In this document: positions 99-33,352 of the stretch, piece after piece | How the letters are laid out: every line of letters starts with the position of its first letter | Position numbering within the stretch: the stretch's first letter is position 1 | DNA from: an uncultured Acetobacter sp. | GTDB taxonomy: Bacteria > Pseudomonadota > Alphaproteobacteria > RF32 > CAG-239 | NCBI GenBank assembly: GCA_964599945.1 | Contig: CAZRHI010000003.1 | Span: 1 to 33,584 of the forward strand | Direction of reading: 5' to 3' | DNA: 33,584 nt | Program-made: the position numbers and the translations under genes | The notes under the pieces: model-generated | The model's input: the letters and a program-made list of their open reading frames with translations, nothing else | Told to the model about the DNA's origin: nothing | The model's database searches: none

Positions 99-416
99 AT
101 GTCCACAGGTCAAGAATTAGAGCAAGAAAGCAGATATGACATTTTGCAAAATGAAGCAGGCGAAATCCTAATTATTATAAATTCGCGTGCTGGTGGTCCA
201 GAAAATCCGCGTTTTGTATATGATGGCGGTGAAACAGCATTACTTTATCGAACAAAAGAAAGCACAGTAGTATTTAGTGGAATTGCAACATCTGCTCGTA
301 TGCCATTAAAATCTGTTAGCTCAATGCTAATTGTTGAAGTGGAAGATGAAGACGTTGCTCGTGAATATACAGTTCCAGTTCGAATTGTAAAAGATGTAAA
401 AGTCTTGATTAAGTAA
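99..416 (+). CDS. small soluble hypothetical protein (105 aa from ATG 99; the track ORF opens at GTG 87)
   Basis: The ORF is intact in AT-rich DNA. GTGAGG at 87-92 can serve as an SD 6-7 nt before ATG 99. There is no hydrophobic segment, and the C-terminal half is acidic (VEVEDEDVAREY). I recognise no family. It is not NuoK or NuoJ, which are membrane proteins. Confidence 0.5.
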   Translation: MSTGQELEQESRYDILQNEAGEILIIINSRAGGPENPRFVYDGGETALLYRTKESTVVFSGIATSARMPLKSVSSMLIVEVEDEDVAREYTVPVRIVKDVKVLIK

Positions 417-475: not shown

Positions 476-2152
476 GTGGTGGAAAATACAATTATATGTT
501 TGATTGTAATTGCGCTAATTAGCCTAATGCGCTTGCGTATGAGGTATGATAAAGTTTTATCTTGGCTGGTTTTCTTCGCGGTAGTGTATCTCTTTGAAAG
601 CTATTGCACTAGTTCTATAAGCACAAATGCCAATAATTTAAGCTTTTTGTGGAGTGAAACCCGAATCGGTAAAATCACCGTAACATTTACCCCAACAGTA
701 TCACTTAATCGTTTGGTTATCCCATTGTTTTTTATGACAATGATGACAATATTAAATAATAATATTTTTAGATACGAAGAAAGGCGTAGTGCGTTTAATG
801 CGTTTTTGTTATTAAACTTCGTAACGTTGAGTCTTTTGATGAGTGCTGAAAACTATGTTCAGCTGATAACTGCGGTGTTTGTTTCTGATATTTTAGGATA
901 TTTGGTGTTAAAAGATGTCGATTCGTCACATCGTTACGTTATTTATAATCTATTTGCAGATATGTGTTTGTTTATGGTTCTGGCTTTGGCTTGTGGTAAA
1001 ATCCAAAGTTTGGAATTGAGCAGTTTATCTAATTATAAAAAAATAGGAGGACATCGAGATTTTGTTGGTCTTATAACTGCCTTTGCTATATTTATCAAAA
1101 TTGGGTGTTTTCTGTTTCAAAGCTATTTGCTAGATATAAGTACAGCTCGCTTCCAAAGAATGAGTGTTATAAATCTGATGTTTTCACCTCTTGTGGGTAT
1201 ACTATTATTAGTAAAACTACATGATTTACTCTTAGTTTCTAATTTGTTTATTCCAACCTTAAAAATAATGTCTGGCACAACATTTATGGCAGGATTGTTC
1301 TATTTTGTGGTTAAAGATAATATACAAAAGAAAAATGTATGTTTAAATATGGCTTTTTATGGGTTACTAATGTATTTGTTGGAGTTGTGTCATTTTGAAT
1401 GGGTAACTCTTTTGGGCTACTACCTTATCATGATGTACCTCTTTAATCAGTTTATCTTTAAGATATATTTATATCAAAACAGAGAACAACGCGTCAGCCG
1501 TATGTTAAACGCTCGGGAAATTAACGCAGTTGCTCTGCAAACAATTTTTATGCAAGTTGTTTTTTTAGCAGGGCTGTTTTTTATGTTAATTTTGAAAACA
1601 TCAACAGCTCTTGCGGATAATAAAATAATTTTAGCAGGCGTTGCAATACTGTTGGCACTAAGCATAGTTTTGCATCACATATATAAATCACCACATTCAT
1701 ATCGTCTAGATTATCTAAACCCTAATAAATGGCGTGTTTTGTCATTTTTATTTAATAGCACATTGCTAGTTGTTGGGGGATATGTATTTGAGATATATCA
1801 ATGGCAGAGTGCAATTTTTGTAATTGTTTTTATGGCGATAACCGCTTTACCACAATGGGCAAAGCTGCGTAAACTTTATGAAAAAGAGGGACTGCAAAAA
1901 GAAGATGTAAGCAAAAGCTTGTTTTACTACATTTTGGTAGAGCCTTTGAAATATTTGAGTAGAACCCTGTGGTTAGTGGTAGATTTTATTTTTTCAGAAA
2001 AAATGATAACCTCAGCATTTGGAACAATAAATAAATTTAGCATTTCATGCTTTTTTAAACTAAATCAAAAGAGCATTGTGGCGGGTATTATATATATTAT
2101 TTTAGGAGTCTTGATTTTTGTTGCATCGTTTTATTGGAGATATTTCCTATGA
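476..2152 (+). CDS. NuoL/MnhA-like antiporter-type membrane protein (Proton_antipo_M-like), highly divergent
   Basis: 558 aa and polytopic. By-eye alignment to NuoL: SAENYVQL...VSDILGYLVLKD matches LADN....WEGVGL.SYLLIG. NLFADMCLFMVLALACGKIQSLEL matches TRVGD..L......Y...G.L.F. FIKIGCFLFQSYLLD matches GKSAQ.PL..WLPDA. GGAGA at 467-471 precedes GTG 476/479. It is the first of three consecutive paralogs upstream of birA. Confidence 0.6.
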   Translation: MVENTIICLIVIALISLMRLRMRYDKVLSWLVFFAVVYLFESYCTSSISTNANNLSFLWSETRIGKITVTFTPTVSLNRLVIPLFFMTMMTILNNNIFRYEERRSAFNAFLLLNFVTLSLLMSAENYVQLITAVFVSDILGYLVLKDVDSSHRYVIYNLFADMCLFMVLALACGKIQSLELSSLSNYKKIGGHRDFVGLITAFAIFIKIGCFLFQSYLLDISTARFQRMSVINLMFSPLVGILLLVKLHDLLLVSNLFIPTLKIMSGTTFMAGLFYFVVKDNIQKKNVCLNMAFYGLLMYLLELCHFEWVTLLGYYLIMMYLFNQFIFKIYLYQNREQRVSRMLNAREINAVALQTIFMQVVFLAGLFFMLILKTSTALADNKIILAGVAILLALSIVLHHIYKSPHSYRLDYLNPNKWRVLSFLFNSTLLVVGGYVFEIYQWQSAIFVIVFMAITALPQWAKLRKLYEKEGLQKEDVSKSLFYYILVEPLKYLSRTLWLVVDFIFSEKMITSAFGTINKFSISCFFKLNQKSIVAGIIYIILGVLIFVASFYWRYFL

Positions 2153-3576
2153 ATGAATATCTCTTGCTAATGTTAATCATTATACCTCTTTTAGGTTCGG
2201 TGTTTGCTTTATGCTCCAAAGAAGACCGAAATTATGCTATCAATAACATTTATTATGTGTCTATCTGGACAATGATAGTAAATACAATATTGGTGTTATA
2301 TACATTTTCCAAAATGGATGTAAATAAGAGCGGTATACAAATTATTGAGAAATATACATGGTTTAGTTTCCCCTCAACAGATATATTACTTGGGGCAGAT
2401 ATTTTTTCGATGTTGCTGTTGCTTAGTATCAATTTGTCTTTTTTAACAGCGGATATTTGTTTAGATCATACCACCGAACGTCCCAAAACGCTAATTGCTT
2501 CAGAACTCCTGTTTGTGGGTTTATTAGATGGCTATTTATTATCAGGTGATATAATTTCTTTTTATGCGTTTTTTACCGCCCTAATAGCCCCCGTTATTAT
2601 CTTGATTAGTACTTATGGCAATTTACGCAAGATAAACACGTTAATACGTTTTAGTTTGTATAATATCATTGGCGTTTTATTACTTTTTATATCAATTATG
2701 TTAATATGTCATTTCAAAATGGCAAATATTCCGCTTAATACTATTGGACACTTAAATCTAACAGGGGGAATAGAATATTTTGTCTGGTTAAGCATTTTGT
2801 TTGCATTTATCTCGCGTTTACCAGTTTGGCCATTTCATTATTGGATTTCATCAGTTAACGCCAGTTTGAAAAATCCATTAGTTTTTATTGTCGGAAACCT
2901 TATACCTTTGGTAGGTCTATATGGGTTTATTCGCTTTTGGCCAAATACTGTGCCTCAAACGATTGCGGAATATGCTCCCTTTTTTGAAGGGATTTGTATT
3001 TTGAGTATGCTGTTTATGTCGCTGGTAAGCCTAAGTCATAAAGATTTACGTTATAAACTTTTTTCATATACTGCCGTCTATTCACTCTTATTTTTAACTG
3101 GGATATTTTTGCCAACAGGCGTACTAAAATCTAGTATCGGATATTCTCTTTTTTCCTATATTATGATTGTTACAATCTTGTCTTTTTTAATAAGTCATGT
3201 CGAAACCCAAAAGAAAAAATTAAATCTATACCTAGGAAGTGGAATATTGTGCTATCTACCACGAACCTCCAAATGTCTTTCGTTGTTTGTTTTAGCAGCA
3301 ATAGGTCTGCCAGTAACCCCATTGTTTTGGAATAATTTTATTATCATCTCTGAGATATTTAATTTCAATCTTATTTTTGGTGTGTTGGTCATGCTATCAT
3401 TATTTATTGTCGCACTATCGTTATTAGAAGAATTATACCGAATGAAAGACAAGAGTTATGCGGAAAGCATATGTGTATTAGGAGAAGATCTCCCTAAACT
3501 ACATTTTGGAATATACATTGGGTGTTTGATGATTTTGTTCTTTTCATTTTTTAAACCTTTGTGGTTCGTTTTCTAA
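2149..3576 (+). CDS. NuoM-like antiporter-type membrane protein, divergent
   Basis: SRLPVWPFHYWISSVNASLKNPLVFIVGNLIPLVGLYGFIRF aligns with the NuoM core K.PL.PFH.WLPDAH.EAPT.GS..LAG.LLK.GGYGF.RF. ATG 2149 overlaps the upstream stop as ATGA (2149-2152). I therefore prefer it to the track start at 2134. Confidence 0.72.
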   Translation: MNEYLLLMLIIIPLLGSVFALCSKEDRNYAINNIYYVSIWTMIVNTILVLYTFSKMDVNKSGIQIIEKYTWFSFPSTDILLGADIFSMLLLLSINLSFLTADICLDHTTERPKTLIASELLFVGLLDGYLLSGDIISFYAFFTALIAPVIILISTYGNLRKINTLIRFSLYNIIGVLLLFISIMLICHFKMANIPLNTIGHLNLTGGIEYFVWLSILFAFISRLPVWPFHYWISSVNASLKNPLVFIVGNLIPLVGLYGFIRFWPNTVPQTIAEYAPFFEGICILSMLFMSLVSLSHKDLRYKLFSYTAVYSLLFLTGIFLPTGVLKSSIGYSLFSYIMIVTILSFLISHVETQKKKLNLYLGSGILCYLPRTSKCLSLFVLAAIGLPVTPLFWNNFIIISEIFNFNLIFGVLVMLSLFIVALSLLEELYRMKDKSYAESICVLGEDLPKLHFGIYIGCLMILFFSFFKPLWFVF

Positions 3577-3591
3577 AGGGAGTAAGTCAAA

Positions 3592-5013
3592 GTGTTACAG
3601 CAAATATTTTATGTGTTTCCAGAATTAGCTCTCTTTGGTGGTATAATTCATCTATATTTTAGCTATATATTAGGAGAAGAGTCCCCCAAGCTTTTTGCAA
3701 GAACTGCGCGTATATGGTTGTTAATTTCCTTGTTTTGTAGTGTAATGTATTATGACCATAGCTTTAATGAAAAATATTTTTCAAATAATTCATATACCTT
3801 GCTGTTTAAAATAATAATCAATATCTTTGCTTATATGATATTAGGACTAGCACCACAATATTTCTCTGCCACAAAAAAGAGTGGTTGTAAATTTTATATT
3901 TTATTTTTATCAGCACTTATCTCAATAAATGTAATGCTTGCAACAGTTAATGTAACAATATTAGTGTTAAGTTATCTTTTATTGTTGTTTATCAACCACC
4001 GACTGTTGGAAGTAAACTGCGACAAAATGTCTTTAGTGGCGCGTTTACGTTATATGAGTGCAGGAGCGGTGATACTTTGTTTGCTCGTATTTGGTTTTGT
4101 TGGCATATATACATTAACCAATGGCTCACCAGATTACTATTTGCTCGCCAACATAATAGAAGAAAAAAAACAATCTTTTATGGTCTATCTATATGTCATC
4201 TGCTTGATAATACCATTTTTATATTCTTTAGGGCTAGCTCCATTTCATAGTTTTTCAGAAGATAAATTAGGAAAGTCCTCTCTGCCCGTAAGTCATTATT
4301 TAGCCGTGGTTGTTCCCTTCGCTTATTGGGGAACATTTATTAAGCTAAATAAAGAAATCGCAACGCCATTTGCCGAACAAATATCACCAGTGTATATGTT
4401 TTTGGGACTGTTATCAGTTGTATACGGCGCAATGGGGGCAAATGCGAGAATTAACCTACATCGCATCTATTCATTTTGCTTAATGTACTATTTTGGTATG
4501 CTGTTAGTGTTATTGTCATTGTTTAATCCTCAGACAGATTTTATAATTTTCATTAGCTTGTTTGCCAGTATAATCGGAATAAACGGAGTTTACCTTGTGT
4601 TTTATAGCTTAAAAAGCAGAAATGAGTATCTATCAGCAATAACCTCGCTCTCTGGTTTAGCGGAAACTCGTCCATATACCACAGCAACTTTACTGATTAG
4701 CTTGTTTTCGCTAATGGGGATGCCACCATTAGCAGGCTTTTTAGGACAAGTTAGCCTAGCATCAGAACTGATTGCCTCTAAGAGTTTTATAAGTCTAAGT
4801 ATTATCTTTTTCTTTTTATTGTTATTAGCAAAAACTTATCTAGAAATCATGAAAACAGCATATTTCGAACATAAAATCATCGCGTTAGATACTGAACCAA
4901 AATTTTTATGGCTCTATATGCTCGGTAACATCATCTGTATCGGTGTAATCGCATTTAATCCTAACCACCTGTTAAAGATAATAAAGGATATGTTTTATGT
5001 CATTTTCATTTAA
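3592..5013 (+). CDS. NuoN-like antiporter-type membrane protein, divergent
   Basis: 473 aa and polytopic. LGLAPFHSFSEDKLGKSSLP matches K....PFH.W.PDVY.GAPT. ARLRYMSAGAV matches S.EA..KYF..G. The C-terminal LFSLMGMPPLAGFLGQ matches the NuoN motif L.SL.G.PP..GF..K. The GTG start has AGGGAG 8 nt upstream. It sits directly before birA, as nuoN does in Alphaproteobacteria. Confidence 0.65.
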   Translation: MLQQIFYVFPELALFGGIIHLYFSYILGEESPKLFARTARIWLLISLFCSVMYYDHSFNEKYFSNNSYTLLFKIIINIFAYMILGLAPQYFSATKKSGCKFYILFLSALISINVMLATVNVTILVLSYLLLLFINHRLLEVNCDKMSLVARLRYMSAGAVILCLLVFGFVGIYTLTNGSPDYYLLANIIEEKKQSFMVYLYVICLIIPFLYSLGLAPFHSFSEDKLGKSSLPVSHYLAVVVPFAYWGTFIKLNKEIATPFAEQISPVYMFLGLLSVVYGAMGANARINLHRIYSFCLMYYFGMLLVLLSLFNPQTDFIIFISLFASIIGINGVYLVFYSLKSRNEYLSAITSLSGLAETRPYTTATLLISLFSLMGMPPLAGFLGQVSLASELIASKSFISLSIIFFFLLLLAKTYLEIMKTAYFEHKIIALDTEPKFLWLYMLGNIICIGVIAFNPNHLLKIIKDMFYVIFI

Positions 5014-5728
5014 TCACAAAATAGCCCAGTGGGATTGGATAGATGTTACAAAAACCACATCAACCAATGATGAGATCAAGAAACTCATCAATACAACAGA
5101 GAATGAGAATATAGTTGTTAGTGCAAAAAAGCAAACAGCGGGGCGTGGGCGTCGAGGTAGAAAATGGCAAGCAATAGACGGTAATTTGTATTTTACATAT
5201 AGCCTAAAAATCTCCCCCGAAGAGTTAAGTCGAGTTGTTTGTCTTATTGGATTAAGTTTAGCAAAAACCGTGCAAAGCCTGCTTCCGACAAAGACAGTCC
5301 AAATCAAATGGCCAAATGATGTGTTTCTTGAGGGAAAAAAAATCTCGGGCATCTTGTTGGAAAGTCTAGGAAATAATTTATGGGCAATAGGAATAGGGGT
5401 AAATATTACCTCTGCGCCGCTTCTTGAAAATTCAGCCTATGAAGCAATATCTTTAAATGAATGTGGCTTAAGGGTTGACCGAATAGATTTTTTGCATTAT
5501 TATTTACAAAACTTTGCGCAAGATTTAGCGATATATAATAAAGAGGGCTTTGCTCTTCTTAAAGAACAATGGTTAAAACTCGCACTTAACTATCAAAAAC
5601 AAATAACAGTAAAAACGGAAACATCAGAGAAAACAGGAAAATTTTTAACACTTGACGATAATGGTTTTTTGATATTAGAAACTCCCCATGGCGAAGAACG
5701 AATTATGGTTGGTGATTTGTTTATATGA
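4997..5728 (+). CDS. birA: biotin--[acetyl-CoA-carboxylase] ligase, group I (no N-terminal HTH)
   Basis: It carries the signature QTAGRGRRGRKW (GRGRxGRxW) followed by GNLYFT, and KWPNDV...KISGILLE. AAGGA at 4984-4988 lies 8 nt before the ATG. The start overlaps the end of the NuoN-like gene by 17 nt. Confidence 0.9.
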   Translation: MSFSFNHKIAQWDWIDVTKTTSTNDEIKKLINTTENENIVVSAKKQTAGRGRRGRKWQAIDGNLYFTYSLKISPEELSRVVCLIGLSLAKTVQSLLPTKTVQIKWPNDVFLEGKKISGILLESLGNNLWAIGIGVNITSAPLLENSAYEAISLNECGLRVDRIDFLHYYLQNFAQDLAIYNKEGFALLKEQWLKLALNYQKQITVKTETSEKTGKFLTLDDNGFLILETPHGEERIMVGDLFI

Positions 5729-5743
5729 AAAGGAATAATAAGA

Positions 5744-7420
5744 ATGAACGAATTTAACAAAGACGGGATTTATTTTATACCACTAGGCGGAGCCGATGAA
5801 ATCGGTATGAATATGTTTGTGTATGCTTCAAATGGTAAGGTAATAGTGGTTGATGCGGGATATGGCTTTTTGAATGATGATTTCCCAGGAATGGATATGT
5901 GTTATGCTTCTCCAGAGTTTTTAGAAAACTATAAAGAAAATATTTTAGGGCTATTCATCACTCACGGACACGAAGATCATCTAGGAGCGATTGCACAAAT
6001 CTGGCCTTCAATACAATGCCCAGTATACGGAACAGACTTTTCACTAGGGCTAGTAAAAGAACGCTTAAGCGAATATAAAATGCAAGATATTGTTCCTCTT
6101 ATCTCTGTAAATCATGAAAAAATAGTCAAATTAGATGGGTTTGAAGTGGAGTTTATTCCTATTGCTCATTCGATTCCTGAAACTTCCGCTTTGTTTATCA
6201 AAACCCCACATGGCAATATCATGCACGCGACAGATTGGCGTTTTGATGATAATAAGCTTTCTATGGTAAAAACAGATTTTGCCTCGTTAAAACGTGTGGC
6301 AAAAGAGGGTGTGGATATTTTTGTTTGTGATTCGACCAATGTAATGGTAGACGAACCCCAAGCCAGCGAAGAAGATGTTCGTGATTGTTTAATCAAAATG
6401 ATACCAGAAATGCAAGGGGGAATTGTTGCCACCTGTTTTGCTTCCAATGTGATGCGTTTAGAAAGTTTGATATTAGCCGCGCGTGCAGCCAATCGCACCC
6501 CCGTATTAGTTGGTAGAAGCTTGGTAACCAATGTCAAAATTGCAAAAAATTGTGGTTATTTACAAGATTATACCGATATTCACACCATAGAAGAAGTTGA
6601 TGGGCTAACCTCAGATAAAGCCCTGTATATATGTACTGGCTCTCAAGCAAATTACCGTAGTGCAATGACCATGATTGCCAATGATGAAAATAAATATATA
6701 AAATTATCATCAGAAGATAATGTTATATTCTGCTCCAAAATGATTCCAGGAAATGAAGATAAAATCGAACGCCTGCAAGAAAAAATATTAGCCAAAGGAG
6801 CAAATCTCATAACCGAGGAAGATTATTTGGTTCACACCTCTGGTCATGCGTGTAAAAAAGATTTAAAAGCCATGTATGAATTGCTAAACCCTAAAATAGT
6901 GCTTCCAGTTCATGGTGATAAAAAGTTTATCCGTGAGCATAAAAGATTTGCCCTAAATTGTGGGGTTAAAGATGTTTTTTCTGCTCAAAATGGAGATATT
7001 TGCCATTATAATGGTCAAATAATTAGTTTATTAGAGCAGATACCGTCAGATATTATTGCCATAGATAGGGGGCGGAGCGTTTCCTTAGGTTCCGAATTAG
7101 TTAAAAATCGTCGCCGTATAATGTTTAATTGTACATTGTTCATCAGTGCGGTAATAAGTCGAGATTATCAATTAAAATCTCTACAGTTTGATTCCATAGA
7201 TATATTAGAGGAAAATGAATGGTATATACTAAAGGAAGAAATAACAAAACAAGTCAAACCACTTATTGAGGAAAAATTAAAAGACAACCCAAAACGCAAT
7301 TCTGTGGAAGATTTTATTAGAGGGCAAATTCGTCGGAGAGTTTTAAGTGCAACAGATATAAAACCAGTAACAATGCTTCAAGTGCATTGGGAAGAAGATG
7401 AAGATTTAGAAATACAATAA
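5744..7420 (+). CDS. rnj: ribonuclease J (metallo-beta-lactamase / beta-CASP family)
   Basis: It has the HGHEDHLGA motif (HxHxDH) and later the motifs ATDWRFD, FVCDSTN and HTSGHA...LPVHG. At 558 aa it matches the length of alphaproteobacterial RNase J. AAGGA precedes the start. Confidence 0.9.
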   Translation: MNEFNKDGIYFIPLGGADEIGMNMFVYASNGKVIVVDAGYGFLNDDFPGMDMCYASPEFLENYKENILGLFITHGHEDHLGAIAQIWPSIQCPVYGTDFSLGLVKERLSEYKMQDIVPLISVNHEKIVKLDGFEVEFIPIAHSIPETSALFIKTPHGNIMHATDWRFDDNKLSMVKTDFASLKRVAKEGVDIFVCDSTNVMVDEPQASEEDVRDCLIKMIPEMQGGIVATCFASNVMRLESLILAARAANRTPVLVGRSLVTNVKIAKNCGYLQDYTDIHTIEEVDGLTSDKALYICTGSQANYRSAMTMIANDENKYIKLSSEDNVIFCSKMIPGNEDKIERLQEKILAKGANLITEEDYLVHTSGHACKKDLKAMYELLNPKIVLPVHGDKKFIREHKRFALNCGVKDVFSAQNGDICHYNGQIISLLEQIPSDIIAIDRGRSVSLGSELVKNRRRIMFNCTLFISAVISRDYQLKSLQFDSIDILEENEWYILKEEITKQVKPLIEEKLKDNPKRNSVEDFIRGQIRRRVLSATDIKPVTMLQVHWEEDEDLEIQ

Positions 7421-7431
7421 AGGAGCAAATA

Positions 7432-8412
7432 ATGCAAAAGATTATACCACAAAAGCTTCAAAAGGGCGATAAAGTAATGGTGATAGCACCAGCCAGAGGC
7501 ACAAAAATTATCAGCAAAGAAACACGGCAAATAGCAAAAGAAAGGCTAGAAAGCCTTGGGTTAGAAGTGGTTTTTGCCCCCAATGCCACAGATGAAAATT
7601 GGGATTATATGGGGTCAAGTTCAATCGAAAAACGCGTGGCGGATATTCATACCGCGTTTAGTGATAAAAGTATTCGAGCAATATTGACAATTATTGGCGG
7701 AGCAAATTCAAACCAATTATTGAAATATCTGGATTATGATTTGATAAGAAATAATCCGAAAATCTTTTGTGGATTTTCAGACATTACAGCCCTCGAAAAT
7801 GCAATTTATGCCAAAACAGGTCTAGAGGTATATTACGGTCCACACTTTAGCTCTTTAGGTATGAAATATGGCTGTGATTATACTTTTGAACATTTTGTAA
7901 AAATGTTGGTAACAAACGGAAAAGATGAAATTATCCCATCAGAAATTTGGAGTGATGATTTGTGGTTTTTAGATCAGGAAAAACGCGAGTTTGAAGCAAA
8001 CGAGGGATATTGGAATATTCACGATGGCGAAGCTCGCGGAACGATTATCGGTGGCAATCTCTGTACATTTAATCTACTACTAGGAACATCGTATCGTCCA
8101 AAATTTGAACAAGACACGATTCTCTTTATTGAAGATACCGAGGCTAGTCCTTTAGCAGACTTTGAGCGTAACCTTCAAGCCCTTATTTATCAGCCAGATT
8201 TTGAAAATGTCAAAGCATTAGTTATCGGACGTTTCCAAAAAGGCTCTAAGGTAACAAGAGAGGGACTTGAATATGTCTTAAATACGAAAAGAGAATTAAA
8301 AAGTATGCCGATTTTAGCAAATGTGGATTTCGGGCATTCCGCTCCATTGTTAACAATTCCCTTAGGCGGAACAGCCACATTGAAAAATGGCAAGCTATCG
8401 TATGAAGATTAA
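7432..8412 (+). CDS. LD-carboxypeptidase, peptidase S66 family (LdcA/MccF-like)
   Basis: It shows the Ser-Glu-His pattern of S66: GFSDITAL (nucleophile Ser), FIEDTE and DFGHSAP. A strong AAGGAG lies before the ATG. It is the last gene before the terminator. Confidence 0.8.
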   Translation: MQKIIPQKLQKGDKVMVIAPARGTKIISKETRQIAKERLESLGLEVVFAPNATDENWDYMGSSSIEKRVADIHTAFSDKSIRAILTIIGGANSNQLLKYLDYDLIRNNPKIFCGFSDITALENAIYAKTGLEVYYGPHFSSLGMKYGCDYTFEHFVKMLVTNGKDEIIPSEIWSDDLWFLDQEKREFEANEGYWNIHDGEARGTIIGGNLCTFNLLLGTSYRPKFEQDTILFIEDTEASPLADFERNLQALIYQPDFENVKALVIGRFQKGSKVTREGLEYVLNTKRELKSMPILANVDFGHSAPLLTIPLGGTATLKNGKLSYED

Positions 8413-17444: not shown

Positions 17445-18395
17445 TTATTTGTAGCTATTGATTTTATTTTGAATAGCTTCAAGGCTTCTGCTGTTAAACG
17501 GTTCACCGTTAATAATAAGCATCGGTACACCGTTAATTCCCAAAACTTGAGATAAAGCATCAATGTCTTGAGAGCCACGACGAATACTCTTTTCTTCAAT
17601 CATCTCTTTAATTTCATCAACATTAAGACCTTCGTCAACCAAAATCTGGTTAATAGTTTCTTCGTTCATTTCAGGCAAAGTCATAACACCATCAAAAACT
17701 TCAACGAATTTACCTTTTTGAGCCGCCGCCAATGAAACTTTTGCTGCATAGTTGGAATGATCGCTAATGAAATATAAAGGTTGGAAAACAAACTTAACAT
17801 CAGGATTGTTTCTCATCAATTCGCTCATAACAGGAGCTAAAGATTTACAATGACTACAAGCAAAGTCAAAAAACTCTACAACAGCCACTTGCGCATCTTC
17901 AGGTCCAACAAAAGGAGCAACTTTGCTGTTTCTCATCTCATCCCAATGATCATGGAATTTTTGAGTTTCATCTGCTTCATCTTGAGATTGCTCATCATTG
18001 TTTTCTGCTTCACCAGAATCAGTAGAAACATGTGATGCCACAGCATTTTTAAAAGCTTCAGTTTCTATAACAGAATTTGCGACAAAGTCAGCATTATTAC
18101 GAATAAAATCTTCAATAATTGCAGGATTGTTTTCTATATAGTCCTTAATTTTGTTTCCAATTTCTTCATCACTAATCGTTGAGAAGTTTTTAACAATATC
18201 TCCAAAATTTTCACTTTTAGCAATATTTTCTAAAATAGCCTGTGAATTATTATTAACATACTGTTCCACAGTCATATCAATTTGTTTTTGTTGGTCTGCC
18301 TTTTTTTCTGGGCAAGTTCTATCTAAATAAATCATACCTCCAGCACCAGCAGCAGCCAATATGAAAATAGCCAACCCGTTCAATAATTTGTTCAT
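17445..18395 (-). CDS. DsbA-family thiol:disulfide oxidoreductase, membrane-anchored, with a long acidic linker
   Basis: It has an N-terminal TM (GLAIFILAAAGAGGMIY) and an acidic low-complexity stretch, DSGEAENNDEQSQDEADETQ. The thioredoxin fold shows VEFFDFACSHCK (CxxC) and a cis-Pro region, GINGVPMLIINGE. GGGGA SD precedes the start. Confidence 0.8.
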   Translation of the reverse strand: MNKLLNGLAIFILAAAGAGGMIYLDRTCPEKKADQQKQIDMTVEQYVNNNSQAILENIAKSENFGDIVKNFSTISDEEIGNKIKDYIENNPAIIEDFIRNNADFVANSVIETEAFKNAVASHVSTDSGEAENNDEQSQDEADETQKFHDHWDEMRNSKVAPFVGPEDAQVAVVEFFDFACSHCKSLAPVMSELMRNNPDVKFVFQPLYFISDHSNYAAKVSLAAAQKGKFVEVFDGVMTLPEMNEETINQILVDEGLNVDEIKEMIEEKSIRRGSQDIDALSQVLGINGVPMLIINGEPFNSRSLEAIQNKINSYK

Positions 18396-18576: not shown

Positions 18577-19335
18577 CTATTTCAAATTGTCAATAGCGTT
18601 TTGAATTTGGTTTACTTCAATAGCTTGTAAAGGTTCGCCGTTAATAATCAACGTTGGAACACCACGAATCTCTACTGTTTGAGAAAGCTCAGTAATAGCT
18701 TCTAAGCTTTTCTTAACTTTGTCGCTGTTCATAATCTCTTTGGTTTTAGCAACATCAAGACCAGCCTTAGAGATAATTTCTTCAATAGCAGCCTCGTCAA
18801 CAGGACCATTGTGAGTTAAGAAAGCTTTATAAACTTCTAAGAACTTTCCTTGTTCATTTGCTGCCATTGCAGCTTTAGCTGTTTGCAAAGAACCAAGGAA
18901 TGTAACAGGCTTAAATACAAACTTCACATCAGGGTTTGCTTTAATAACTTTTTCCATAGTTGGAGCTAAACGTTTGCAATAACCACAGTTAAAGTCAAAA
19001 AATTCAACGATAGTGATTTTTGCATCTTTTGGTCCAACAAATGGAGAATTATCTGCATTGTTTAATTCTTCAATATTTGCTTTATAAGATTCTGCAACAC
19101 GTTTTTGAGCTTCAATTTGCTCTTGTCTTGCTGCCAAGTCCAAAGCTTCACGAATTTTCATCGGATTGTTTTGTAAATAAGCTTCAATAGCTTGGTCAAT
19201 GTTCGTAGCTTCTGCAACATCAGCTGGAGCAACGTTAACAGAATTTTTACCAGCAACATGCGCAGCCAAACTTACTGAAACAAGCACACTGGCAATAACT
19301 GAAATTAAAATAGTAATGATATTATCTTTATTCAT
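18577..19335 (-). CDS. DsbA-family thiol:disulfide oxidoreductase, membrane-anchored
   Basis: It has an N-terminal TM and VEFFDFNCGYCKR (CxxC). IRGVPTLIINGE is the cis-Pro loop. The body is collinear with the neighbouring paralog, for example NPDVKFVF.P and QKGKF.EV. Confidence 0.8.
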   Translation of the reverse strand: MNKDNIITILISVIASVLVSVSLAAHVAGKNSVNVAPADVAEATNIDQAIEAYLQNNPMKIREALDLAARQEQIEAQKRVAESYKANIEELNNADNSPFVGPKDAKITIVEFFDFNCGYCKRLAPTMEKVIKANPDVKFVFKPVTFLGSLQTAKAAMAANEQGKFLEVYKAFLTHNGPVDEAAIEEIISKAGLDVAKTKEIMNSDKVKKSLEAITELSQTVEIRGVPTLIINGEPLQAIEVNQIQNAIDNLK

Positions 19336-20171: not shown

Positions 20172-21224
20172 ATGTTGACATATCTGTTTTTCCTCTCAAG
20201 TGGTTTATTTCTCGGGTGGTCATTAGGGGCAAATGATGCTTCTAATATCTTTGGAACCGCAGTCGGAACTAAAATGCTCCGTTTCACAACAGCAGCCCTA
20301 ATTGCCAGTATATTTATTGTGTTAGGCTCTGTTGTTAGCGGGCAAAACACCGCAGATACCTTAAACGCCCTAGGTGGTGTAAACACATTAGCCGCAGCGT
20401 TTTCAGTATCTCTTTCTTCGGCAATGGCTGTGGTTTTAATGCTAAGGGTAGGGATTAGCGTTTCAATTTCTCAAGCCATAGTTGGTGGAATTGTGGGGTG
20501 GAATGTATATACAAATAATCCAACAGATATGGATACGTTAGCAAATATTTGTGGGTCGTGGATTTTCTGCCCTATCATCTCAGGTGTGATTGCCGTAACC
20601 ATTTATTTGTGCATCAAAAAAATCTTACGTCATAGCAAAATACACATCTTACGACAAGATTTAGCCGTAAGAGTAGGGATGATTTTAACGACAGCCTTAG
20701 GTGGCTTTGCTTTGGGTGCAAATAATATGGCAAACGTGGTTGGTGTCTTTGTCGATTCGTGTATTTTCACCCCAATAAAACTCGGAGAAATTTATACATT
20801 AAGTGGTATACAAGTCCTATTTTTGCTAGGTGCGTTAGCTGCCTGCGTTGGTGTTTTCACATATTCCAAAAAGGCCATAAAAACCGTAGGGAAAAATGTC
20901 TTAGCTTTTTCACCAGTGGTTGCATGGATTGTGATTTTATCTCAATCTCTGGTGTTAATCTTGTTTTCATCACGAGGTCTTGAAAATTTCTTAATTTCAA
21001 TAGGCTTACCACCCTTACCAGCTGTTCCAGTTTCTAGCACGCAAGCGGTTATTGGTGCGATTGTGGGTATTGGCTTAGCCAAAGGTGGTAAAGGAATAAA
21101 ATGGAGTGTTGTGTTAAGGTTAGTATCTGGCTGGGTGGCTTCCCCTCTAATTGCATTTGTACTAAGCTATATCACGCTATCATTTATGGAAAATGTTTTC
21201 CGTCAACAAGTTTACTTACCATAA
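20172..21224 (+). CDS. pit: inorganic phosphate transporter, PiT (PHO4) family
   Basis: It has the duplicated signature GANDASNIFGTAVGT (N-terminal half) and GANNMANVVG (C-terminal half). It is 350 aa and polytopic. Confidence 0.9.
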   Translation: MLTYLFFLSSGLFLGWSLGANDASNIFGTAVGTKMLRFTTAALIASIFIVLGSVVSGQNTADTLNALGGVNTLAAAFSVSLSSAMAVVLMLRVGISVSISQAIVGGIVGWNVYTNNPTDMDTLANICGSWIFCPIISGVIAVTIYLCIKKILRHSKIHILRQDLAVRVGMILTTALGGFALGANNMANVVGVFVDSCIFTPIKLGEIYTLSGIQVLFLLGALAACVGVFTYSKKAIKTVGKNVLAFSPVVAWIVILSQSLVLILFSSRGLENFLISIGLPPLPAVPVSSTQAVIGAIVGIGLAKGGKGIKWSVVLRLVSGWVASPLIAFVLSYITLSFMENVFRQQVYLP

Positions 21225-21235
21225 AGGAGAACAAC

Positions 21236-22738
21236 ATGACATTGCAAAGCTTTTATCGTAAAATGCCACCATTTTTATTGCTATTGCATTTATTTATAGG
21301 GCTTTGCTTTTGTTTGTATGTCGTCTGCCTAACAGATAGCTTAGGAGGGGATACATTAGAGCATATTCACTCTTCATGGTTGGTTTATGCAAATTTTATT
21401 CCGTATAAAGATTTTTTTCAACATCATAACCCATTATTGTGGTATATGTTTGCTCCGTTTGTAGGTCTTCATGCTAAAGGGCTTGATGATAACATCATCA
21501 CAGCAACAGTTGTTTCGGCCGCAATAATTGTTTCGTTTATAAACTATCTATATTTATACCTCATAACATCGCGTTTTTTAAGTTCAAAGTTCGCTGGAAT
21601 AATTGCCTCAGCGATTGCCTTTACGCCATATGTTGTGCTTTCCGTAATTCACTTCCGTCCAGATAATTTTATGATGACAGCGTTTTTTGCGGGTCTTTAT
21701 TACTATTTTTGCCATATTAAGGAGCAAAAGCTCTGGACATTAGTGTTGGCGTTTTTTCTCTTTTGGTGTTCGTTTATGTTTTTGCAAAAGATAGTATTCA
21801 CGCTCATCTTAATCGGCTGCATAACATTACTCTTGCTATATCAAAAAAAATTAGACTGGAACAATGTCATATACGCCGCCTCCTTGCCAATAGCCTTAAG
21901 TCTACTATTTGTCGCATATCTCTATAAACATGACATCTTAGCGGTGTGGTATCATTCAAATTTCACATTTAATTTACATATTCCAGAGCTTTTTGATGAA
22001 CGACGTATTGGGCATATCTGGCCAGAGTTAAAATTACTATTGGCAGGGGCGTTTGCTGCAATCGTGTTGTGTTTAAAGAAATCAAATGTATATTTTAAGA
22101 TTATCGCACTCATCTTTGTTGTGGAATTATGTCAGCGGTTGTTTTATTTTTCAGCGTTTGCGTATTATTTTTATCTGGTCATCTACACTGCATCTATCTT
22201 ATCTGCCGTGTTTTTATGCGAAAAAGTATTCAATCGCTGGTATGGCTTGTCATATATTTTGGTAATTGCCATAGGGTGGTGTATGTATGAACCAGCCATA
22301 TATGAAGGTAATATTGGTGCGCCAAAGAAACGTTTTTATGAACCACTAAACAAACAAGTCGTCCGCTTATCAACTCCATGTGATTATATCTTAAATGGCG
22401 ATGGAATTATTTATAATTTATATAATCGTGATCCACATTATTATTGGAATTTATTAGGGCAAACAGATGTTATTGGGGCAAAAGTGGGAATACACCCGTT
22501 AATGGATATTAACAATGTTATAAAAACATATAAACCCAAAATTATTAACGCTGCTCCATTTTTTGATAAGTTTGCCAAAGAACGAGGATATGATGTCATC
22601 GTGCATCTTCCAGATATGAATTTAGTGGAAACATATTATAAACCCATGGGTAATGACTTGTATATCTTAAAGCCAGAATATGCCCCTGTGAAATGTGAAT
22701 ATGATTATAAAAAACGTTATTACCACGCATACGACTAA
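21236..22738 (+). CDS. polytopic membrane protein, probable GT-C fold glycosyltransferase (ArnT/PMT_2-like)
   Basis: AAGGAG at 21224-21229 precedes ATG 21236. The track start at 21101 would overlap pit in another frame. The first loop reads GGDTLEHIHSSWLVYANFIPYKDFFQHHNPLLWYMFAP. This resembles the D/E...PY.D....PPL.Y loop of GT39/GT83 enzymes. About 11 TM spans precede a soluble C-terminal domain of about 140 aa. Confidence 0.5.
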   Translation: MTLQSFYRKMPPFLLLLHLFIGLCFCLYVVCLTDSLGGDTLEHIHSSWLVYANFIPYKDFFQHHNPLLWYMFAPFVGLHAKGLDDNIITATVVSAAIIVSFINYLYLYLITSRFLSSKFAGIIASAIAFTPYVVLSVIHFRPDNFMMTAFFAGLYYYFCHIKEQKLWTLVLAFFLFWCSFMFLQKIVFTLILIGCITLLLLYQKKLDWNNVIYAASLPIALSLLFVAYLYKHDILAVWYHSNFTFNLHIPELFDERRIGHIWPELKLLLAGAFAAIVLCLKKSNVYFKIIALIFVVELCQRLFYFSAFAYYFYLVIYTASILSAVFLCEKVFNRWYGLSYILVIAIGWCMYEPAIYEGNIGAPKKRFYEPLNKQVVRLSTPCDYILNGDGIIYNLYNRDPHYYWNLLGQTDVIGAKVGIHPLMDINNVIKTYKPKIINAAPFFDKFAKERGYDVIVHLPDMNLVETYYKPMGNDLYILKPEYAPVKCEYDYKKRYYHAYD

Positions 22739-30703: not shown

Positions 30704-33352
30704 ATGAAAAAAGCGATTATATTAGGTGGTGTATTAACAGTGGCAGCACTTGGTGGTGGGTATTACTTCGTACAAAATAGTCAGCCCAATGAGCTAGCTA
30801 TATATTGGGATGGTAAAGCAGAATTAAACCAAAAAGGAACAGACGGAAATTTACCACTAATCAAAGCTGTTCAGGCAGATGACATAATTGCTGTGCAAAC
30901 ATTGTTAGCCAAAGGGGCAGATGTGGATATTGCTAATGCATCTGGGCAAAATGCGGTTGATGTTGCACTTGAAAAAGGAAATGGAGCAATATTTAAATTA
31001 GTTGCTGAAAAAAGCAAGGCGGATTTTAAAGACATCAAGTTTTTAACAAAAGCATTAGAAGGGGAAAGCCCAGACATTGTGGAGGCATTATTAAAAAAAG
31101 GAGCAGATGTTAATGCTATATTGCAATTTAATGGGAGAAAACGCGCTGAAGATGTCCTAAACTATAAAGATCCCAGAGTAATCACACCGCTTAAAAAAGC
31201 CGTTGAAGAAAATAAACCAGAAATGGTAAGCGTTTTAGCCAAAAATGGGGCTGAGGGCGTGGTTGATTTTTTAATTGAGCAAGTGCGCACCGCGTCATTA
31301 GAAATGGTAAAAGCTCTAGGCGAAAACGCAGGAGATTTGCGTAAAATAACGGCAAAAGGGACAGATTTATTATCATATTCTGCTATAGAAGCCAAACCCG
31401 AAGTCTTAGCTTATTTGCTTTCTAAAAATGCAGGAGATGCAAATAAATCATTAAATCGTATTATAGCTCAACGCAAGTCTGATAATGCGTATGAAGAAGC
31501 TGTCGAGATGTTTATAAAAGCTGGTGCAATGCCTTCTTCGACAGTAATAGAATTGATGGTTAAGAAGCAAAAAACAGAAATGTTCAAAAAGCTTGCGAGT
31601 TGTTATAAAGATCCTAATGTGAAATTAGATAATAATGATGAAGATTTATTTATGTATGCTACGCGCAAAGGAAAGCTAGATACTGCGGAATGGTTATTAG
31701 ATAAAGGGGCGGATATGTGGAAAGAATATTCCAATGGGATAACCCCTCTAAAAACATCTGTAAACTTTGCTAATGAAAATCCTGAGATGTTGGAGCTATT
31801 TGAACAAAGGTTAAAAGATGTTAATGAAACAGGTTATAATGGAGAAACTTTGTTAATGCTCTTTGCACAAAATGGAGATTTTGAAAATTTTGAGCGTATA
31901 ATGAACAAAGGTGGAAATATCTGGCAGAAAGATAATAATGGAAAAACTGTTTTGATGTATGCAGCCGAAGGTGGAAACAAGCGGATTATGAATTATCTAA
32001 TTTTTAAGGGAGATAATATCAATGCAAAAGATAATTATGGTAGAACAGCATTGATGTATGCATCTAAAAAAGGACAGACAGAGATAATAAAGTTAATGGA
32101 AACAAAGGGAGCTAATGTAACCGATAGCGATGATGATGGCAAAACAGCCATAATGTATGCCGCAGAGCATGGACAAGCTGAAGCTGTGGCAATGTTAATA
32201 AACATGGGAGAGAGCGCATCAAACGCAGATAATAAGGGACGCACAGTTTTAATGTATGCTGCATTGGGCGGAAGTAAACCAGCTGTGGAAACACTTCTTC
32301 TTAAAGGCGTGGATGTTCAGGCTATTGATAACGATTCTAAATCTGTGTTAATGTATGCCGTAGAGGGGAAAAATGAAGAAATTGCCAATAGACTTATCCG
32401 TAAGGGGGCAAACATCTTTTCAATAGATAAAAATGGATATACAGCAGAAATGTACGCATTGCTACAAGGTGATGAAAAGATGTATAACCGTGTAAAACCA
32501 ACAATAACAAATGCTAGGATACAAGCTCAAGGCGATGGCAAATCATTAGGTATTTTGGCTTTTGAAGGGGGAAATATTGATTTAGTCAAACAAACCTTAA
32601 AGCAATATAAGCAAACGTTAAACTTGCCAGATGAAGAGGGTAAAACGTTTATGATGATGATAGCAGGAGAGGGGCGTCCTGAAACAGTACGAGAAGCCAT
32701 TATGAAGCAAGGCGACATACGAAAAGCGGATAATCATGGTAAAACAGTGTTAATGTATGCAGCCGAAAAAAGTGTTGGAGTAAATTTAATTAGTATCTTA
32801 AAAGCTATTACTCAAAAAAAAGGTGAAGACCTTAATCTAGCAGATGAAAACGGCATAACCGCATTGATGTATGCAGTTGGCTATAAAAATAACCAATCAG
32901 TTAAAGGGCATATGTTAATGACCAATGGCGCAGATGCGTCAGCCAAAGATAAAAATGGCAAAACGGTATTGATGTATGCGGTGGGAAATCCATATAATAA
33001 AGTAGATATCCAAAGCGTTGGTGAAATTATAGAGCGCGCAGGGGAAGTTGATTTATCAGATAATGACGGCAAAACCGCGTTGATGTATGCTTCTGCAAAT
33101 AAAAATGCTGATGTAAATATAATAATAGATTTAATAAATGCAGGTGCTTCAGTAAATGCTAAGGATAAAAGAGGCAAAACGGTATTGATGTATGCAATGG
33201 AAAGTGCAGACATTAGTAAAGTTCGCGTTTTATTAGCAGCAGGGGCAAACCCTGAAGGTACAACCGAAGATAATAAAACCGCTAAAGATTTTATCAATCC
33301 AGATCTGTTGTGCTTTAAGGACGTAGCAGAAAGTGTTTTACAAAAAAAATAA
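30704..33352 (+). CDS. 882-aa ankyrin-repeat protein with an N-terminal signal peptide or anchor
   Basis: The N-terminus reads MKKAIILGGVLTVAALGGGYYFV. At least 20 ANK-like units of about 33 aa follow. Fifteen units carry the variant core G(K/R)T.LMYA....G.......L...GA.....D. That core falls at aa 317, 385, 417, 450, 483, 516, 549, 582, 617, 649, 683, 721, 756, 793 and 829. AGAGGGA SD precedes the start. Confidence 0.9.
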   Translation: MKKAIILGGVLTVAALGGGYYFVQNSQPNELAIYWDGKAELNQKGTDGNLPLIKAVQADDIIAVQTLLAKGADVDIANASGQNAVDVALEKGNGAIFKLVAEKSKADFKDIKFLTKALEGESPDIVEALLKKGADVNAILQFNGRKRAEDVLNYKDPRVITPLKKAVEENKPEMVSVLAKNGAEGVVDFLIEQVRTASLEMVKALGENAGDLRKITAKGTDLLSYSAIEAKPEVLAYLLSKNAGDANKSLNRIIAQRKSDNAYEEAVEMFIKAGAMPSSTVIELMVKKQKTEMFKKLASCYKDPNVKLDNNDEDLFMYATRKGKLDTAEWLLDKGADMWKEYSNGITPLKTSVNFANENPEMLELFEQRLKDVNETGYNGETLLMLFAQNGDFENFERIMNKGGNIWQKDNNGKTVLMYAAEGGNKRIMNYLIFKGDNINAKDNYGRTALMYASKKGQTEIIKLMETKGANVTDSDDDGKTAIMYAAEHGQAEAVAMLINMGESASNADNKGRTVLMYAALGGSKPAVETLLLKGVDVQAIDNDSKSVLMYAVEGKNEEIANRLIRKGANIFSIDKNGYTAEMYALLQGDEKMYNRVKPTITNARIQAQGDGKSLGILAFEGGNIDLVKQTLKQYKQTLNLPDEEGKTFMMMIAGEGRPETVREAIMKQGDIRKADNHGKTVLMYAAEKSVGVNLISILKAITQKKGEDLNLADENGITALMYAVGYKNNQSVKGHMLMTNGADASAKDKNGKTVLMYAVGNPYNKVDIQSVGEIIERAGEVDLSDNDGKTALMYASANKNADVNIIIDLINAGASVNAKDKRGKTVLMYAMESADISKVRVLLAAGANPEGTTEDNKTAKDFINPDLLCFKDVAESVLQKK
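31835..33223 (+). repeat. densest run of in-frame 99-nt ankyrin repeat units
   Basis: The string (t/a)t(g/a)atgtatgc recurs at intervals of about 99 nt, for example near 31952, 32051, 32150, 32249 and 32348. On the opposite strand this periodicity creates a spurious 175-aa ORF with recurring AYIN(A/T)VLP. Confidence 0.85.

Follow-up and report, generated by a model that had tools for sequence, protein, structure and literature searches.

A NuoL-NuoM-NuoN-derived gene trio with replaced relay residues and no adjacent nuoH-K in uncultured gut and rumen Alphaproteobacteria

The distal membrane arm of respiratory complex I contains three antiporter-like subunits, NuoL, NuoM and NuoN (Nqo12-14; ND5, ND4 and ND2), and it is still debated what each of these modules contributes and whether their lateral charge chain is essential. 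Outside complex I, related proteins occur in the Mrp system (MrpA/MrpD), a redox-independent PF00361 assembly and the nearest precedent for antiporter-like subunits without a quinone module, and in the DAB CO2-uptake system, where a PF00361 protein (DabB) is combined with a soluble partner (DabA). Parts of complex I can also be kept and re-used in anaerobes, as in hydrogenosomes (e.g. those of Trichomonas), which retain NuoE and NuoF after the loss of complex I (PMC4967309), and a 2025 survey based on hidden Markov models (HMMs) lists 2,171 species in which the set of Nuo subunits is incomplete (PMC12361115). Here we describe a locus in a stretch of 33,584 nucleotides from an uncultured Acetobacter sp. 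(contig CAZRHI010000003.1; the whole stretch is referred to as the window), in which three consecutive genes derived from nuoL, nuoM and nuoN (L-like, M-like and N-like, together the trio) follow the gene for a small soluble protein (S105) and precede birA and the RNase J gene rnj. The block S105-L-M-N is called the cassette, also in those lineages in which S105 does not precede the trio.

Orthology of the trio and history of its locus

The locus is compactly arranged. S105 (99..416, + strand; 105 amino acids (aa), soluble) lies directly upstream of L-like (476..2152, +; 558 aa), which is followed by M-like (2149..3576, +; 475 aa from the ATG at 2149, in a frame that is open from 2134), N-like (3592..5013, +; 473 aa), birA (4997..5728, +; 243 aa, 158 bits with TIGR00121 against a cutoff of 83) and rnj (5744..7420, +; RNase J family TIGR00649, 362 bits). 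The M-like ATG and the L-like stop overlap as ATGA (4 nt), an overlap that is conserved across loci, and the two genes are predicted to be translationally coupled; birA starts within the end of N-like (17-nt overlap), and the spacing from S105 to rnj is tight and operon-like throughout. The 5′ edge of the window is 98 bp before S105, and the DNA preceding the cassette is seen only in the loci of relatives; a look-up of exact matches to the window gave a single further contig, from Logan, of 5 kb.

The trio is orthologous to NuoL, NuoM and NuoN and has an alphaproteobacterial and mitochondrial affinity. M-like matches PF00361 with 70.7 bits (cutoff 21.5), and its best NCBIfam model is TIGR01972 (NDH_I_M), at 148.1 bits against a cutoff of 263.8 (56%). 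Its best sequence match in the PDB is Paracoccus NuoM (8qby_M, 1.3e-24), with plant mitochondrial Nad4 next and Mrp subunits far behind, and the HMM of its family scores highest against E. coli NuoM. Similarly, N-like passes the PF00361 cutoff with 65 bits and has TIGR01770 (NDH_I_N) as its best NCBIfam model, at 123.7 bits against a cutoff of 332.6 (37%); plant Nad2 is its best PDB match, followed by E. coli and Paracoccus NuoN, Mrp subunits being again far behind, and E. coli NuoN scores highest with its family HMM.

L-like is the most divergent case as far as profile libraries are concerned, with no match in Pfam or NCBIfam, including PF00361, PF00662 and the NuoL model TIGR01974; three of seven tested relatives match PF00361 at 30-38 bits. 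The fold is nevertheless that of NuoL. More specifically, an AlphaFold (AF2) model built from a 53-sequence alignment (pLDDT 85, pTM 0.82) shows the core of 14 transmembrane helices (TMs), the periplasmic beta-hairpin and the break in TM7. It also has a lateral amphipathic helix of 52 residues (478-529) and, at 534-557, a C-terminal anchor TM, so that the core, the lateral helix HL and the anchor TM by which a NuoL fold can be recognized are all present. The top 39 Foldseek matches of this model are all NuoL/ND5/NdhF chains (E to 2e-15, TM-score 0.63-0.68), and MrpA first appears at rank 40. Among the E. coli subunits, NuoL scores best with the HMM of the L-like family, and the two align end-to-end with hhalign. 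The top PDB match of the family profile at the level of sequence is DabB2 (9rd0_B, E = 6e-5). A transfer of the trio from Mrp, Hyf or DAB was considered and rejected, since M-like and N-like best match alphaproteobacterial and mitochondrial NuoM and NuoN, and L-like best matches NuoL.

For the history of the locus, birA and rnj serve as synteny anchors that mark the 3′ end of the ancestral nuo operon. Canonical loci for comparison came from a scan of metagenome contigs in which an alignment of RNase J served as the query and all open reading frames (ORFs) were then run through BLAST. On 27 contigs nuoN, nuoM-N or nuoH-I-J-K-L-M-N lies directly 5′ of birA-rnj, and the Nuo proteins of these contigs share 35-45% identity with their E. 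coli counterparts. The trio in the window thus occupies the position of nuoL-M-N in the ancestral operon.

Cassette loci were taken from 36 GTDB species representatives, from Logan, ENA and NCBI contigs, from very distant members and from metagenome contigs (L048-L061), the sources being uncultured Alphaproteobacteria from the guts of human, mouse, chicken and ruminants; up to 10 kb of upstream DNA was inspected per locus. Within that distance no NuoA-K homologues were found upstream in the 36 GTDB species loci, and none were found nearby in the distant members L044-L047 and L054-L059. Taken together, over 45 related loci from uncultured Alphaproteobacteria of gut and rumen lack nuoH-K next to the trio and nuoA-K within the inspected DNA upstream (up to 10 kb), and the break in the operon falls exactly at the K/L boundary in all cassette lineages. 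The DNA upstream of the cassette varies between loci, with genes for Cas9 and Cas2, AAA ATPases, an aldo-keto reductase or lipopolysaccharide synthesis in the place of the missing subunits. These results agree with an earlier reading of the window made from its letters alone (the sequence-only reading), which had placed the trio at the nuoL-nuoM-nuoN position before birA and RNase J, and which had named two findings that would speak against it: a canonical nuoA-K set just upstream, where the related loci carry unrelated and variable genes, and a lack of PF00361 matches, which M-like and N-like do have and which for L-like is offset by its fold.

Some of these loci deserve separate mention. In the two closest relatives (L005 and L006, ~66% identity in L-like) a type II CRISPR-Cas system (1189-aa Cas9 and Cas2; L005 2313-6269, L006 1274-5230) is found just 5′ of a DUF697 gene, which is followed by the S105 cassette; the window stops before the corresponding position. 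The most reduced cassette (L047 328-5541, on a contig of GCA_964370255.1 with a GC content of 0.32) encodes an S105 homologue of 110 aa (62% identity to the window copy), L, M and N of 511, 455 and 448 aa and a BirA of 212 aa, and rnj no longer lies downstream. As for the organisms, reduced uncultured Alphaproteobacteria of ruminants (1.59 Mb) have been placed in order RF32 (PMC8199421), and gut metagenome-assembled genomes (MAGs) named ‘Azospirillum/Acetobacter sp. CAG’ have been described as strict anaerobes without terminal oxidases that use PFO and [FeFe]-hydrogenases (PMC4967309, PMC6431628).

Relay residues, selection and rate of divergence

The positions of the key residues were checked in the E. 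coli proteins and then mapped with hmmalign, hhalign and MAFFT over 34-39 species or sequences; E. coli numbering is used unless stated otherwise. Four canonical outgroup contigs (L063, L065, L066 and L076) keep all of them, and the derived state is common to all cassette lineages. In N-like the sites E133/K217/H224/K247/K395 read L-S-H-P-Q in the window and E-K-H-K-K in the outgroups. The Glu of TM5 and the Lys of TM7 and TM8 are gone in every cassette lineage, and the Lys of TM12 (K395) is retained only in L054, L055 and L057, so that N lacks three or four charges depending on the lineage, all four being gone in the core clade. The replacements are hydrophobic for E133, S/A/L/T for K217, P for K247 and Q/E for K395. 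The NuoN relay (E133 in TM5, K217 in TM7, K247 in TM8 and K395 in TM12) is therefore not present in N-like, where almost no conserved buried charge is left.

The corresponding sites of M-like, E144/K234/H241/K265/E407, read T-R-H-L-N in the window and E-K-H-K-E in the outgroups. Across the family (36-39 sequences) the pattern is x-R-H-L-N with L/F at the TM8 site, where x, the TM5 position, is Glu only in deep branches (L044, L047, L054, L055 and L057) and A/V/T/S in the clade of the window. In window numbering R228, L259 and N401 are fixed in 34-36 of 36 sequences. M-like thus does not carry the NuoM relay of E144 (TM5), K234 (TM7), K265 (TM8) and E407 (TM12). Two conserved charges are found that canonical proteins do not have, E285 and a TM12 Glu that is E407 in the numbering of the window ORF and should not be confused with E407 of E. 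coli.

In L-like, losses and gains occur together. At E144/D178/K229/H254/H334/H338/K342/K399/D400 the outgroups read E-D-K-H-H-H-K-K-D, and the cassette lineages have lost E144, H254, H334, H338, K342, K399 and D400 (seven of ten key residues), i.e. the TM5 Glu, the His and Lys of TM8 and TM11 and the Lys-Asp pair of TM12, with hydrophobic or uncharged replacements at all sites other than E144. TM6 D162 (= D178), TM7 K208 (= K229) and D503 of the lateral helix (= D563) are kept, and K208 is the sole residue retained of the NuoL relay E144/K229/H254/H334/H338/K342/K399/D400. The E144 column reads F/C/G and is followed at +3, one helical turn later, by an invariant Asp (D138). A match of D138 to E144 by eye was rejected, as hhalign and an anchored MAFFT alignment both put it three residues past the Glu column. 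D138 (Gly in canonical proteins), R228 (canonical Val) and K286 are gained charges that are invariant in 39 of 39 sequences, and a screen for charges that are conserved here and not in canonical proteins showed D138 to be surrounded by hydrophobic residues. Conserved cytoplasmic loops of L carry FRYEE.RS and LKDVDSS.RY, and the second half of the protein (TM9-14) is poorly conserved. Because new invariant charges accompany the losses, the L subunit looks re-wired rather than merely eroded. The losses in the trio are ordered across branches, which indicates that replacement was probably stepwise and then fixed; the derived states in M-like (R228, L259 and N401) and in L-like (D138, R228 and K286) appear settled, not drifting.

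Despite these changes, the proteins are maintained. The ratio of nonsynonymous to synonymous substitution rates (dN/dS; Nei-Gojobori, ten species pairs) is 0.02-0.21 for L-like, 0.015-0.08 for M-like and 0.03-0.23 for N-like, with 0.02-0.11 for S105, 0.06-0.24 for BirA and 0.004-0.06 for RNase J. The trio is under purifying selection, at values comparable to those of BirA, and its ORFs are intact and full-length in more than 45 lineages, down to an RNase J identity of ~50%. On one contig (L061, VOFD01000869.1) the region 521-7409 has L-like in fragments, M-like in three pieces and RNase J in two; since the essential rnj is also broken, these breaks look like assembly indel errors rather than pseudogenization.

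The rate of change is a separate matter, and here RNase J identity was used as the clock. At 60-70% RNase J identity the canonical NuoL/M/N share 73/78/68% and the cassette L/M/N share 29/43/31%, and at 50-60% the values are 72/78/65% and 26/39/31%, respectively. The rate of the trio thus appears to have switched from slower than RNase J to much faster after the remodelling, and the accelerated divergence would be consistent with a trio that has kept a reduced function but is free of most constraints from partners and catalysis. In four closely related species pairs (L017/L032, L014/L015, L021/L025 and L020/L031) the dS of L/M/N is 1.1-2.6 against 0.1-0.4 for birA, rnj and S66, i.e. 4-20x that of the flanks, and in other pairs dS is equal throughout; it looks as though the cassette or its flanks may have been swapped between lineages by recombination.

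Most of what the sequence-only reading had claimed about these proteins holds, with some refinement. All the motif replacements that it quoted are present and are confirmed by the profiles, and the misalignment by eye that it had allowed for is not the cause, as the Glu/Lys chain is gone from M, N and half of L. The claim of replacement needs correction in that the TM7 change in M is a conservative one (Lys to Arg), that L keeps K208 and D162, and that D138 stands one turn past the lost Glu; ‘eroded’ understates the case of L. Its statement that such long ORFs would not stay open by chance is supported by a calculation: at 32% GC, where a random codon is a stop with a frequency of ~0.076, the probability of an open frame of 558 codons by chance is ~1e-19. 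The erosion is specific to the trio and no sign of genome-wide decay, because the housekeeping neighbours BirA, ParE and LspA exceed their NCBIfam cutoffs. Finally, it had offered a repurposed remnant and very fast evolution as alternatives, and both seem to apply: dN/dS shows maintenance, and divergence is far above that of canonical proteins at equal RNase J identity.

The small upstream protein and the possible role of the cassette

S105 has no relative in Pfam, NCBIfam or, by sequence, in the PDB. Its homologues form 307 clusters, all of ~105 aa and all unnamed, and both S105 and L-like are labelled ‘hypothetical’ in all source records examined. The AF2 model (pLDDT 81) is mostly beta, with seven strands and one main helix, and a Foldseek search of the PDB and BFVD found no structural neighbour (nothing below E = 0.05, TM-score < 0.5). 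Several candidate identities were rejected, namely a relationship to phenylacetate-CoA ligase (profile match with E = 0.059, not significant), a PH-domain-like fold (TM-score ~0.25) and a relic of a Nuo subunit, for which hhalign against E. coli Nuo CD and E-N (NuoB left out) gave probabilities of at most 0.4%, in keeping with the initial view that this soluble 105-aa protein is neither NuoK nor NuoJ.

S105 is lineage-specific and better conserved than any of the three trio proteins, or any other gene of the cassette, with 74-91% identity across 36 species and 57-63% where L-like aligns only locally. Wherever a locus extends far enough, S105 is directly 5′ of L-like, the lineage of L057-L059 being the exception, and since it keeps this place while the DNA further upstream varies, it can be regarded as linked to the cassette. 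The exceptional lineage consists of human-gut metagenome contigs (L057, L058 and L059, GC ~0.49) in which a divergently transcribed YbaK-like gene abuts L-like; S105 was either gained after this lineage split or is encoded elsewhere in its genome.

The explanation that we favour, with moderate confidence, is that L, M and N form a membrane complex of their own, encoded by the cassette, that is clamped by the lateral helix of L and has lost its canonical lateral proton relay, in which M and N are scaffolds, residual chemistry is limited to TM4-8 of L and S105 is a likely partner. It builds on what is shown above, namely the orthology of the trio, the history of its locus, the replaced residues, the purifying selection and the faster divergence, and goes beyond these in proposing an assembly, a lack of pumping, a partner role for S105 and independence from any redox module. 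More specifically, an anaerobic gut and rumen lineage would have deleted at least nuoH-K from the operon of its alphaproteobacterial complex I and kept the distal membrane arm in place, and L, M and N would assemble side by side, with the lateral helix and the C-terminal anchor of L holding them together. The buried Glu, Lys and His of the lateral chain, which carries protons in complex I, would have been dismantled, leaving N electrically silent and M with only an Arg at TM7. Because of this dismantling, M and N would be structural modules and not pumps. Any remaining ion or proton chemistry would be confined to the first helix bundle of L (TM4-8), adjoining the L/M interface, around a putative re-wired cluster of invariant charges (Asp138, Asp162, Lys208 and Arg228), and S105 would probably be a cytoplasmic soluble partner in most lineages. 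A bolder extension, which we hold only tentatively, is that S105-L-M-N is a self-standing, redox-independent machine. In it two modules would be silent scaffolds, and the third, re-wired around a newly formed buried cluster of Asp, Lys and Arg, would have taken on another task, which might be to sense ions, to offer them a single-site path or to anchor S105 in the membrane.

Several points weigh against the stand-alone complex. With up to 10 kb around the cassette inspected, nuoA-K or another redox module could lie elsewhere in these genomes, and the lineage of the window is tied to the published CAG genomes by the names of MAG records alone. The assembly of L-M-N and the binding of S105 are both things that we infer. 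S105 is absent within 4.5 kb upstream in L057, L058 and L059, where the eroded L-M-N-birA-rnj is present, and it evolves far more slowly than its supposed membrane partners; for these two reasons it may function independently of them. In addition, the Asp and Lys retained in L, together with the buried Glu residues of M (E285 and E407 in window numbering), could form a non-canonical transport path.

Two of the rival explanations assume a working transporter. In the main one the trio still serves as the pump arm, either of a highly derived but complete complex I or of some other redox-driven (hydrogenase- or ferredoxin-linked) complex, and the remaining subunits would be encoded elsewhere in the genome. 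Split nuo operons are known from other reduced Alphaproteobacteria, e.g. the Rickettsiales; the inspection reached no further than 10 kb on each side of the cassette, and the lateral helix, which ties the arm together in complex I, is retained in L. We nonetheless consider this explanation unlikely, because the N/M axis is hydrophobic in every lineage and the operon is cut at the K/L boundary in all of them: the Glu/Lys axis that leads from the quinone site through N and M to L is made up of hydrophobic or uncharged residues, and with its buried N/M part replaced throughout, canonical coupling would not be possible. N has lost the TM5 Glu that faces NuoK in complex I, terminal oxidases are reported to be missing from related MAGs, and the trio’s identities of 26-43%, against 65-78% for canonical NuoLMN at equal RNase J divergence, indicate that partner constraints have been lost. 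An active, redox-independent cation or proton antiporter or channel of the Mrp kind, using non-canonical polar residues over the three subunits, seems improbable as well. No MrpB/C/E/F/G-like genes were found in the gene tables or flanks of the cassette loci, N is almost without conserved buried charge, the key TM8 and TM12 sites of M are Leu and Asn, NuoL outranks MrpA in the structural matches and TM9-14 of L are poorly conserved; these points have to be set against the homology of NuoL/M/N with MrpA/D, which is stated in the HMM survey (PMC12361115), the Asp and Lys that L retains, the buried Asp and Arg that it has gained, the conserved Glu gained by M at E285 and in TM12, and the strong purifying selection.

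At the other extreme, the trio could be nothing but decaying relics whose frames stay open only through sharing a transcript with the essential birA and rnj. The loss of functional residues, the rapid divergence and the failure of Pfam and NCBIfam to detect L would all be expected of relics. They would hardly retain full-length ORFs in more than 45 lineages with RNase J identities down to ~50%, dN/dS values of 0.015-0.23, dozens of invariant residues (derived ones included), a confident NuoL fold in the L-like model and frames of a length not expected by chance at 32% GC. We give this account very little credence: on the grounds of dN/dS and conservation the pseudogene reading was rejected, and simple decay is effectively excluded.

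Neighbouring genes and comparison with described systems

Other parts of the window hold observations of their own. An S66 peptidase gene (7432..8412, +) is next after rnj. Two adjoining DsbA-like thioredoxin-fold proteins with N-terminal extensions are encoded at 17445-18395 (-) and 18577-19335 (-), a pair that would be notable if the organism is a strict anaerobe. A PiT phosphate transporter gene (20172-21224, +) is followed by an ORF with a weak match to the PMT_2 glycosyltransferases (21101-22738, +); as listed the two overlap by 124 nt, and the true start of the second is probably further downstream. Near the end of the window an 882-aa protein (30704-33352, +) consists almost entirely of ankyrin repeats (Ank_2, 314 bits in 10 stretches), a composition that is unusual among free-living bacteria and typical of proteins that interact with a host. 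Rfam and tRNA scans of the window gave no matches, and promoter and terminator scans stayed at chance level.

In the literature we searched, for the cassette as well as for RF32 respiration, which yielded context papers only, there is no account of an L-M-N-only remnant with a dismantled relay, a re-wired L and a conserved new neighbour. If the bolder extension given above is true, the cassette would be the first case of the pump arm of complex I outliving the enzyme. It bears on the debate mentioned at the outset, as two of the modules, and the third in half of its length, have lost the charge chain in evolution, while selection has kept all three proteins and the clamp helix across a deep lineage. 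It also bears on (i) the uses of antiporter-like folds apart from pumping, (ii) the dismantling of a respiratory complex in anaerobes, which is relevant to mitochondrion-related organelles, and (iii) whether S105, a conserved and unannotated 105-aa family, is a new partner. The ‘hypothetical’ labels of L and S105 expose a systematic gap in annotation.

Among the described systems, complex I is the closest. The trio is orthologous to its NuoL/M/N by best match and by fold, has the same gene order at the same birA-rnj locus, and shares the 14-TM cores, the beta-hairpin, the broken TM7, the lateral helix and anchor TM of NuoL and the structural motifs DG.S, P.H.W and YG..RF. It differs in having no adjacent nuoH-K, in the removal of the relay Glu, Lys and His from N, mostly from M and from the second half of L, in scores of only 37-56% of the NCBIfam cutoffs for M and N with L going undetected, and in a divergence that is several-fold faster, with new invariant charges in L and a new 105-aa neighbour. 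With Mrp it would have in common the existence of antiporter-like subunits apart from a quinone module, but Mrp requires MrpB/C/E/F/G and retains its Lys/Glu chain, and the cassette locus has neither; there is no Mrp operon at the locus, and sequence and structure matches of the trio to Mrp rank below those to complex I. The DAB system resembles the cassette in pairing a PF00361 protein with a soluble partner outside complex I. DabA, however, is a large carbonic-anhydrase-like protein, whereas the neighbour in the cassette is a 105-aa beta protein without a Pfam match, and DAB has a single membrane subunit in place of an L-M-N trio with a lateral helix, whose L structurally best matches NuoL; the DabAB arrangement of a DUF2309-type dabA gene beside one PF00361 subunit was not found. 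In the available part of the survey of incomplete complex I (PMC12361115), an L-M-N-only remnant, the loss of residues and an S105 partner are not described. Hydrogenosomes, in which complex I parts are likewise partly kept and re-used, have kept the soluble NADH module, whereas the cassette has kept the opposite end, the distal membrane arm, and would thus be the mirror image of organelles that retain only NuoE and NuoF.

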